Source of the DNA: Ranitomeya imitator
Lineage: Eukaryota
DNA length: 64,000 nucleotides
Direction: 5' to 3'
Assembly: GCF_032444005.1 (NCBI RefSeq)
Contig: NC_091290.1
Coordinates: 21,204,001-21,268,000, forward strand
Below the pieces are notes generated by a model. That model saw nothing but the letters and a program-made list of their open reading frames with translations, was not told where the DNA came from and ran no database searches. Made by a program: the position numbers and the translations under genes. This document shows, piece after piece, positions 23,861-26,882 of this stretch. The stretch's first letter is position 1, and every line of letters starts with the position of its first letter.

Positions 23861-23984
23861 TTTTGGGAAGTCCGGCTACCAGGCTCAAGAATGAAGCAGG
23901 TTCAGGAGATCGAGAGAAAACTGGCGGCTCCTCTCCAAATACGTCAATCAGTATCTCAATTAACCTCAGCAAGTCTAGTGGAGG
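23861..23984 (-). CDS. TSG101-like duplicate exon 5
   Basis: [41 protein letters not shown]; ctccgcag acceptor, A|GTAAGT donor. Confidence 0.85.
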
Positions 23985-26882
23985 CTGCGGAGAGGGGACA
24001 CAGCGGTGACTACGCTGCGCCGGACGCTGTACTCAACTGTGGCCCGCGGTCCGGCACATTCTCACTTATCAGGGGGTTTGGGTCCTAAATGACAGTGCTG
24101 ATTGATTTTACATATGTGGGGGGTTAAAAAGGTCTTAAACTTTTATCCGGTGAGCTAGCAAAATAACGTGCACCTTCTAACGCTTTATTTTGTCTCTTTA
24201 ATTGCATGAAGATTTAAGTACAGAAAAAGTAAAACATTATATTTACCGTCATGGGCGAAAGTGTTGGCACCCCTGAAATTGTTCCAAAAAATGAAGTATT
24301 TCCCCCAGAAAATGATTGCGATTACACGTTTATTTCCTTTGTGTGTATTGGAACACAAAAAAAACAGAGACAAAAAGAAAATTGGACATAAATTCACACA
24401 AAACCCCAAAAATGGGCAGGACAAAATTGTTGACATCCACTTATTTGGATGAAATATTTGGACACTGACAAGTTTTGGTATTTTAGCCGTTTACCAAAAC
24501 ATATTCACAATCCAGTTATCCAATCAATTTGGGCTTAAAGTGCCGACTCTCAGCTTTAATTTGAGGACATTCACATCCTAATTGAAGCAAAGGTTTAAGA
24601 GTTACATCTCTAATATGTCGCTGCCTCTTTTTCAAGGGACCAAAAGTAATTTGACAAATATCTCAAAAGCTCTTTGATGGGCTTTTCCCTCGTTATTCCA
24701 TCATTAATTAAGCAGAGAAAAGGTCTGGAGCTGATTCCAAGTGTGGCGTTTGAATTTGGAAGCTGTTGCTGTGAACCCACAATATGCGGCCATAGGAGCT
24801 CTCAATGGAGGATAAACAGTCCATCATTATAGACCGATGAAAAGAAGAAATCCATCAGAGAGATAGCAGAAATGTTAGGAGTGTCCAGTTACTTTTGAGC
24901 CCCTGAATGAGGAGGCTTTGTAGGAAAGTGGTTGCAATTCCAAAGACTTTAATTAAACCTGAAAGTGTCCATTTCAATTGCATCTCAGTTGTTTAATTTT
25001 AAATCCAAAATACTGACCTGCGGAGCTGAAATCATGAAGTTCGGCCACTGTCTAAATATTTCTGGACCTAACTGTATTTATACACAGGTGACCCCGGCAC
25101 ACAGCAGCCCTGAGGACCGGACACACAGCAGCCCTGAAGACGCGACTTGCAGGCCATTGTACTCACCTGCTTCCATTCCTCCAGATACGGGAGGTAGATC
25201 TTGCCGTTAGCGTCTACATGTCTTCCGGTTTTTATGGTCATCGTACTGGTGGGTTTCACAAAGCAGATTGGGGGCTTGTGGGGGTAGGTGTCCAGCAGCC
25301 AGAGACATATGGGGATATTGTATGTGTTACCTAAAGCAAATTAAAATAGATGAGCGAGAACGTCTGATACTTATCAATTACAGGCACAGCTGCCATCACA
25401 ACCATCTCTACAGCCTGTGGTTCTCCAGCTACTACAACTCCCAGCATGCCCCGTCAGTCACAAACTGAGACTTGGAAAGTTGGGATGTAAATCATGGCCA
25501 ATACCGTAAAATCGTGGACAATTTCTCCTTAGATTCCCCCTGATGTAATCGTAAATGCACAAATGATCCCTCGCTCCTCCGCAGATCTGGTTAGGATGGA
25601 GCTTCCCAGATCTCCGCTTACCTTTATAGGGCACAGGAATGGTGCCCGAGAGGCTGAGGAGCTGTCTGGTGGAGCCATCGCTGAAAACTAGAGGTGGGAA
25701 TGCGAAAAGAAGTCTAAAAACACAAAAATCCTGACGGAGAAGATCGACAAATATCTATTTAATGATTGAATAGACTGATATCAATGATTTCTCTAAAGAT
25801 AGATCTTCAATATTAGATTTCGGGAGGAGACACCCGGACCCCCCCTATGATCAGCGGCGGCTCCGAATCTGCAGGCTGTAGTGTCCGCTGCCGGGTCCCG
25901 CGCCTTGTACAGCTGCTCCCCCACACATTCTCCTATCCAACGCCCCAAAAACACTCACCGTAACGGGCAGGTAATGGCTTGAGGTCTCTGTAGAGCTCAA
26001 TCACACCCATGATCTCCTCCAATGATGAATCTCTGTATTTGTACTAAAACGAAGCAGGAAAAAAAAAAAAACATTACATGACCATTGCCACAGCCTTAAT
26101 GAAATTCACCCTCAGCCTTTGATACATCCCTTTAAATAGAATCTGTCAGCAGGTTTCTGCTTTGTAATCTGAGGGCAGCAAAATATCGGGGCTGAAACAC
26201 GGATTTCAGCAATATGTTACTTATTAGGTTGTGTGCCGTTTCAATACAATAAGTGTTTTATCAGCAAGAGATCATCACTGCCGGTGACACACGAGCACTG
26301 CCCGCGGCCGGTGACACACGAGCACTGCCCGCGGACGGCGACACACGAGCACTGCCCGCGGACGGCGACACACGAGCACTGCCCGCGGCCGGCGACACAC
26401 GAGCACTGCCCGCGGCCTTAAAACAATATTTTGCGTTTTTAATTATAGCTAAGTAAAGCTTATTAATTTGTTATCAATCGTCAATAATAGTTTTTTTTTC
26501 TGATACAGAGAGCGGCCAATGCCACAAGATAAAAATCCTGGCTGCCTGCAGTCGCCACCAGGGGGAGCTGCTGAATACAATTTATACATTGGGAACAGAA
26601 TGAAGTGCGCTCCCCCTGGTGGCGGCTGCAGGTAACTATATAGCACTTAGTGGCGCTTCCCAGGAATACACGATACTTCTCGTTACACCGCACTCCCATA
26701 TTATCCCACTGCTCCGCCCACAACCAAACCTCCCCACCTCACACACACCGCAGCCAGCTATGGACGCCGACAAGCCGACGATGGCGTCCGCTCCTCGGTA
26801 CCTGGCGGCCGCTCCTCGGTACCTGGCGGCCGCTCCTCACCTTGCTCAGCATTTTCCTCAGCTCCTCCTCAGTCACCGCCAT
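23861..26882 (-). CDS. TSG101-like partial tandem duplicate (UEV-domain gene), exons 1-5; C-terminus uncertain
   Basis: complement(join(26841-26882,25959-26043,25622-25687,25167-25330,23861-23984)). Exon sizes 42/85/66/164/124 and phases match TSG101; all GT-AG; no stop or frameshift; 119/145 aa identical over the UEV domain; flanking introns still align with TSG101 introns. Confidence 0.88.
24246..25074 (+). mobile_element. Composite Tc1/mariner remnants
   Basis: 5' end matches the 28210 element. An internally deleted second element follows, with a transposase N-terminal fragment ([13 protein letters not shown]) and a TIR ending ...GGACCTAACTG|TA. Confidence 0.65.
25167..25330 (-). CDS. TSG101-like duplicate exon 4
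   Basis: [55 protein letters not shown]; 157/164 nt identical to TSG101 exon 4. Confidence 0.9.
25622..25687 (-). CDS. TSG101-like duplicate exon 3
   Basis: [22 protein letters not shown]; ctctag / G|GTAAGC. Confidence 0.88.
25959..26043 (-). CDS. TSG101-like duplicate exon 2
   Basis: [28 protein letters not shown]; ttttag / G|GTGAGT. Confidence 0.88.
26281..26415. repeat. 27-bp tandem repeat, 5 copies (CCGGTGACACACGAGCACTGCCCGCGG)
   Basis: Read directly. Confidence 0.92.
26841..26882 (-). CDS. TSG101-like duplicate exon 1
   Basis: [21 protein letters not shown] context, AAG|GTGAGG donor. Confidence 0.88.

Follow-up and report, generated by a model that had tools for sequence, protein, structure and literature searches.

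A TSG101-like gene with a UEV domain and a new C-terminal helix beside intact TSG101 in Ranitomeya imitator

TSG101 is essential and nearly invariant, and the usual view is therefore that it cannot adapt to counter viruses that make use of it. A 64,000-nucleotide stretch of contig NC_091290.1 from the frog Ranitomeya imitator (hereafter the window) carries a second, partial TSG101 gene beside the intact one. This copy has so far been labelled only "TSG101-like" by automatic database annotation. A preliminary description of the same DNA had proposed that it is a UEV decoy, which keeps the PTAP groove and has lost the parts needed for ESCRT-I assembly. This raises the question of what the copy encodes, whether it is a maintained gene, and what its product may do. 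No paper describing the gene was found among openly accessible main texts; tables of genome papers could mention it.

Locus and structure of the copy

The gene order on the minus strand of the window is a UEVLD-like gene, the TSG101 copy, and the intact TSG101 parent (Table 1). We take the neighbouring gene to be UEVLD. A search of the 5.96-Gb genome with exon 4 returned three matches, all inside the window, and exon 9 had a single match genome-wide. The UEV of the copy is derived from TSG101, with an exon 4 identity of 92% to TSG101 versus 61% to UEVLD. The copy comprises TSG101 exons 1–5 at 26882–23861 on the minus strand. Its frame is intact and its splice sites are canonical, and the duplicate reported in the preliminary description is real. 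The span given there (23861..25687) does lie in the copy, but exons 1 and 2 fall outside it.

Minisatellite arrays with units of 33, 28, 35, and 34 bp are located at 14725–17989, 52455–54532, 55720–56814, and 57017–61747; they occupy intron 1 of TSG101 and the 5′ part of the UEVLD-like gene or the sequence beyond it. These arrays give rise to long spurious ORFs in the window. A 14-kb intron of the UEVLD-like gene holds long ORF fragments and stretches resembling decayed mobile elements at approximately 41400–49500.

Table 1. Features of the TSG101 locus in the window (positions are those of the window).
Feature	Position	Strand	Remarks
Parent TSG101	4039..18191	(-)	intact, 10 exons, 392 aa
Copy 3′ UTR, approximately 1.2 kb	20010..21226	(-)	contig ends at 20010-20055, 4 runs
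Coding part of the new last copy exon; its end encodes a 35-residue amphipathic helix (aa 205-239), then TGA	21227..21396	(-)	unbroken contig of run X6
Copy new exon 6′ (72 nt, acidic linker)	23248..23319	(-)	joint 23319-23861, CT..AC ends, 4/4 runs
Copy exon 5 (aa 120-161; V141, F142, S143; GLPK end)	23861..23984	(-)	donor intact, used
Copy exon 4 (aa 65-119; Y68, N69, I70, T92, M95)	25167..25330	(-)	probably homogenised with parent
Copy exon 3 (aa 43-65; N45S, T58, Y63)	25622..25687	(-)	joint 25687-25959 in 1/4 runs
Copy exon 2 (aa 15-43)	25959..26043	(-)	sequence and contig joints
Copy exon 1, coding part (aa 1-14)	26841..26882	(-)	joint 26043-26841 in 2/4 runs
Duplicated TSG101 promoter/5′ UTR	26883..27060	(-)	aligns with promoter of parent
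Exact canonical kappa-B 10-mer, at -17	26890..26899	(-)	sole match in window
UEVLD-like neighbour	31769..55193	(-)	UEV exons, then dehydrogenase-like exons; exon 1 not located

The splice evidence came from the contigs of four runs, each of a different study (15 runs were listed); no run is recorded as RNA, and their RNA status is a guess. The preliminary description followed the copy as far as GLPK. The gene does not stop there, and RNA-like contigs of all four studies showed that the exon-5 donor GTAAGT at 23860 is spliced to two new exons (23319–23248 and 21396–21227). A single unbroken contig of run X6 runs through exon 5 (23938–23861), 23319–23248, and 21396–20054. The joint of exons 4 and 5 (23984–25167) was present in three of the four runs; the exon 3–4 joint was absent from the joint table, and some contigs span introns unspliced. 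This spliced form was also present in run X15, which is from a second organism; run X14 yielded nothing.

Splicing of the seven exons gives a 723-nt CDS and a 240-aa product, the translation of which equals RefSeq XP_069596302.1 ("TSG101-like"). The product is laid out as a UEV, an acidic disordered linker, and a 35-residue amphipathic helix. The gene is chimeric, with a conserved helix newly added at the C terminus, and does not encode an isolated UEV. Among the RefSeq isoforms, X3 and X4 skip exon 3, which would break the UEV, and others extend exon 1. Isoform X2 of R. variabilis is without exon 6′. The 3′ UTR of the copy has a poly(A)-signal hexamer at 20021 and five AUUUA motifs, compared with none in the proximal 749 nt of the parent's.

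The coiled coil, internal PTAP, and steadiness box had been described as missing, and the DNA agrees with this: parent exons 6–10 are untraceable between the copy and the parent. The scores of all five exons in this interval were within the shuffle range, whereas the exon-5 control scored 129, with shuffles reaching 31 at most. P(S/T)AP was absent from the three minus-strand frames between copy and parent, and Pfam did not find Vps23_core (PF09454) in the copy at E ≤ 10. The GPPX3Y motif and the internal PTAP had no match in any of the four orthologues scanned. The Engystomops copy retains GPPN without the Tyr, so the loss of GPP is not family-wide. The GPP motif has been linked to CEP55 in PMC6015221. 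Judged from the sequence, the copy would no longer assemble with VPS28/VPS37, be targeted to the midbody through CEP55, or be turned over through the steadiness box.

UEV domain, new tail, and evolution of the family

Pfam annotated a UEV domain (PF05743, E 2.8e-45) and no other domain in the copy. An initial fold prediction from five sequences was unusable (pLDDT 41.7). AlphaFold2 with 35 sequences predicted a UEV fold, a disordered linker at 143–203, and one helix at 205–239 (pLDDT 83–94). Foldseek of the predicted model gave TSG101 UEV structures as the best matches (E 5e-17).

The copy and the parent differ at 26 of the 145 UEV residues. Residues are numbered as in the human TSG101 UEV, which aligns gap-free over 1–144. 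T58, V61, Y63, Y68, N69, I70, T92, M95, V141, F142, and S143, which the preliminary description had named as unchanged groove residues, are indeed all the same as in the parent; five of these 11 fall in exon 4. A set of 18 PTAP-contact positions was taken from PMC7650771 and 10.1101/2024.11.15.623737. None of the 18 was changed in the R. imitator copy, compared with 22 of 130 overall (P = 0.027). When the count was restricted to columns that do not vary among 111 other TSG101 sequences, 0/15 contacts versus 9/90 positions were changed (P = 0.18). The 18 positions are also unchanged in the Phyllobates and Anomaloglossus copies, but contact positions are altered in the copies of Engystomops (T92A, T96S) and R. 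variabilis (T94M). Groove conservation thus appears not clearly above background, and it is further weakened as evidence because exon 4 looks gene-converted (see below). The changes at 9/90 otherwise invariant positions in the R. imitator UEV could damage its folding or function. We infer that the UEV of the copy keeps P(S/T)AP binding.

The preliminary description listed the change of Asn45 among the main traits of the duplicate. N45 is Ser in the R. imitator copy as described, and GPPN has become GLPK, but the Ser is restricted to Ranitomeya. N45 was Asn in 117 of 126 proteins and Ser in seven, all of them Ranitomeya copy isoforms, and two proteins were without the motif; the copies of three other genera (Phyllobates, Anomaloglossus, and Engystomops) keep N45. 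In PMC11725782, Ala changes at V43/N45/D46 are reported to lower ubiquitin binding only threefold, and the ND45,46AA mutant to show normal virus rescue. N45A has been called ubiquitin-binding-impaired, and M95A PTAP-impaired, in PMC7073217 and PMC13442042. Because the change is found only in Ranitomeya and is mild in published mutants, N45S is a late and probably mild change and not a founding feature.

Proteins with the same tail were found in R. imitator, R. variabilis, Phyllobates terribilis, Anomaloglossus baeobatrachus, and Engystomops pustulosus. This species range rests partly on the best 120 of 266 matches, and further frogs may carry the gene. The presence of the tail in both dendrobatoids and Engystomops indicates that the gene is older than the dendrobatoid/leptodactylid split, which took place roughly 60–70 million years ago. 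In the UEV tree the five copies did not group into a resolved clade, and a single clade was not rejected (p-AU 0.39); a single origin is indicated by the tail that all five have in common.

Over four lineages, 94/145 positions of the UEV (65%), 1/42 of the linker, and 21/38 of the helix (55%) are invariant. The helix carries a heptad of hydrophobic residues. Several sources were considered for the tail and rejected. The parent coiled coil was matched as well by 34/500 shuffles and the steadiness box by 500/500, and UEVLD exons 5–6 by 58/500. The DNA scores of the candidate sources were also within the shuffle range. The tail searches returned family members only (4/42 and 1/4 candidates). At E ≤ 0.001 among 1.84 billion proteins, the one match was a family member, and in its own genome the tail matched only itself. 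The best PDB match had an E of 0.29, with no homologue; Atlas features for the tail were blank, the structure matches were generic helices, and no viral fold matched at E ≤ 0.001. In the searches run, the helix thus appears to have no homologue outside the copy family. With no detectable source or relative, the tail either stems from new exonisation or has diverged too far to be recognised.

Other frog TSG101 records likewise switch to an acidic tail after exon 5 and lack Vps23_core, namely those of Xenopus laevis (326 aa), Discoglossus (356 aa), and Pseudophryne (411 aa). The Xenopus and Discoglossus tails are homologous to each other (score 247, 0/1000 shuffles as high) and have no match in the R. 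imitator genome. This common tail suggests that UEV-plus-tail products recur in frogs. The Xenopus (NP_001086736.1) and Discoglossus records resemble the copy in their UEV followed by an acidic linker and tail. In contrast to the copy, they are named isoforms or homeologs and not a tandem paralogue, and their tail is unrelated. As a source of the copy tail, the Xenopus, Discoglossus, and Pseudophryne tails were rejected with 157, 244, and 101 of 500 shuffles as high, and the best comparison with the Xenopus/Discoglossus tail still had 30/1000 shuffles as high.

Comparison of the parent and the copy over codons 1–145 gave a dN of 0.097, a dS of 0.253, and a dN/dS of 0.38 (p = 0.0013). With Pseudophryne as the reference, the UEV of the R. 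imitator copy has 19 unique changes versus one in the parent (p = 4e-5), and all five copies are faster than the parent (each p < 0.03). The copy is under purifying selection yet evolving far faster than the parent. The last-exon piece of run X15 has 14 differences, of which 11 are listed. Among the listed differences, eight are coding (six synonymous and two non-synonymous), and residues 211–240 have five synonymous and no non-synonymous differences. Age, splicing, and purifying selection show that the copy is not a decaying fragment.

Exon 4 departs from this pattern. It has one synonymous difference in 34.5 sites, compared with 20.5 in 63.6 sites for the remaining exons (Fisher p = 0.0003), and its flanking introns are less alike between copy and parent than the exon itself (25167–25330 versus parent 11043–11206). 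Gene conversion between copy and parent, the simplest explanation, has probably homogenised exon 4. The few synonymous differences stand beside six non-synonymous ones, which suggests conversion followed by amino-acid change. The conversion signal, the fast rate, and the several broken or alternative isoforms would also be expected of a nearly neutral expressed duplicate, whose UEV similarity came from conversion and not from function. We consider this highly improbable: the helix exon, which has no parent to convert from, has kept an open frame and a conserved sequence in lineages from Engystomops to Ranitomeya, and outside exon 4 pN is 0.12 versus a pS of 0.32.

Possible roles of the product

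We propose, with moderate confidence, that the copy acts as a competitor for P(S/T)AP ligands that is uncoupled from ESCRT-I. Its UEV would bind P(S/T)AP ligands as the parent UEV does. The product would be unable to join VPS28/VPS37, so these ligands would not be handed to ESCRT-I. The predicted helix probably drives self-association or serves as an anchor for the protein, and this would raise the avidity for a weak ligand; a Kd of about 200–300 μM is given for the HRS ligand in 10.1101/2024.11.15.623737. Such a competitor may tune the hand-off from ESCRT-0 to ESCRT-I and, in passing, any PTAP-dependent viral budding. The earlier decoy reading is kept in part, as the anatomy fits a PTAP binder that cannot build ESCRT-I, but the new helix and the genus-limited N45S depart from it. 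An N-terminal TSG101 fragment is described as blocking the Gag–TSG101 interaction in PMC3766686. Besides an antiviral decoy, the product could be a modulator of cellular processes or an adaptor that links to a new partner.

The last of these would be a gain of function. The UEV would take PTAP or ubiquitinated cargo, and the helix would send this cargo to another pathway via a different partner. The helix is amphipathic and nearly as conserved as the UEV, and its strong conservation fits a positive adaptor role equally well; N45 is kept in three of four genera, and UEV-plus-tail products recur in frogs. However, the searches run found no helix homologue, family, or partner, and the helix is unrelated to the Xenopus/Discoglossus tail. 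We regard a re-wired adaptor as possible though somewhat unlikely.

The hydrophobic heptad of the helix could also suit a variant ESCRT-I subunit, in which the helix replaces the TSG101 stalk. Alternatively, the product could be a free UEV that chaperones NEDD4-type HECT ligases outside ESCRT-I, since an isolated UEV protects a form of NEDD4-2 in PMC11725782. The helix is unlike the parent coiled coil or steadiness box in the shuffle comparisons given above, and Ranitomeya has changes at L20 and Y82, two residues of the face proposed to bind HECT ligases. Both of these readings together seem very unlikely to us.

As a special case of the competitor, the copy may be a dedicated antiviral restriction factor that is kept because PTAP-dependent enveloped viruses exert recurrent pressure, as a TSG101 counterpart of retroCHMP3. 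It is a truncated ESCRT duplicate adjoining an intact parent, its UEV has evolved at an accelerated rate with six non-synonymous versus one synonymous difference in exon 4, the loss of GPP in dendrobatoids would spare cytokinesis, and the engineered fragment TSG-5′ is a precedent in PMC3766686. On the other side, the overall dN/dS is below 1.

The regulatory sequence bears on the same reading. The copy promoter is CpG-rich, has two ETS-type CGGAAGT motifs, and looks like a housekeeping promoter, as the parent's does. Neither an ISRE nor a GAS consensus pattern was found within 1.5 kb upstream of the copy ATG. These two points count against an antiviral role. The exact canonical kappa-B 10-mer at -17 speaks for it; two bases are different at the corresponding site of the parent (18197–18206). 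However, 18/100 shuffles yield at least one such 10-mer, and the loose kappa-B consensus is not enriched (17 versus 20.7 expected). The site is a weak lead only. Run X1 has a variant at 26896 that is still compatible with the loose consensus. A dedicated restriction factor is, in our judgment, unlikely. We also offer as a doubtful speculation that hyloid frogs have kept an ESCRT-I-level antiviral decoy for tens of millions of years, with a UEV made multivalent by the helix and a groove matched to the parent by conversion, which would capture viral late domains and leave the budding machinery unrecruited.

Relation to known systems and significance

The copy shares with TSG101/Vps23 the UEV from exons 1–5, the intron positions, the PTAP groove residues, and a duplicated promoter. 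It differs in that it is without the proline-rich region, coiled coil, internal PTAP, and steadiness box, has a new linker and helix, and evolves much faster. UEVLD is likewise a UEV paralogue fused to a different C-terminal part, but the copy tail is not UEVLD-like and Pfam shows no dehydrogenase-like domain in the copy.

Like retroCHMP3, the copy is a lineage-specific, C-terminally truncated ESCRT duplicate with an intact parent (10.1101/2020.08.30.273656; 10.1101/2021.04.27.441704). RetroCHMP3 is an ESCRT-III retrocopy with a premature stop, whereas the copy belongs to ESCRT-I and is a tandem, intron-containing DNA duplicate with new exons. RetroCHMP3 hinders viral budding at low cytotoxicity and is immune-inducible in the mouse. 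TSG-5′, the N-terminal TSG101 fragment engineered without the C-terminal half (PMC3766686), is similar in keeping the UEV, while the copy is natural and old and bears a novel helix.

Two further groups of records were observed. TSG101 isoform records of 407–409 aa from amniotes (monotreme, marsupial, manatee, lizards, turtles, and crocodile) have the ESCRT-I core replaced; the proline-rich part is followed by a conserved domain of approximately 190 aa with a weak GDSL/SGNH match (PF13472, E 0.0018). A 215-aa "TSG101-like" record of Polypterus ends after the proline-rich region and is possibly a further truncated copy or an incomplete model.

RetroCHMP3, which acts at ESCRT-III in mammals, is the known natural solution to an invariant TSG101. 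An old, natural, and expressed paralogue that retains only the UEV of TSG101 opens to direct test whether the engineered dominant-negative TSG101 fragment has a counterpart in nature. Even without an antiviral role, the copy offers a clear example of how partial duplication and new exons under selection gave rise to a new protein.
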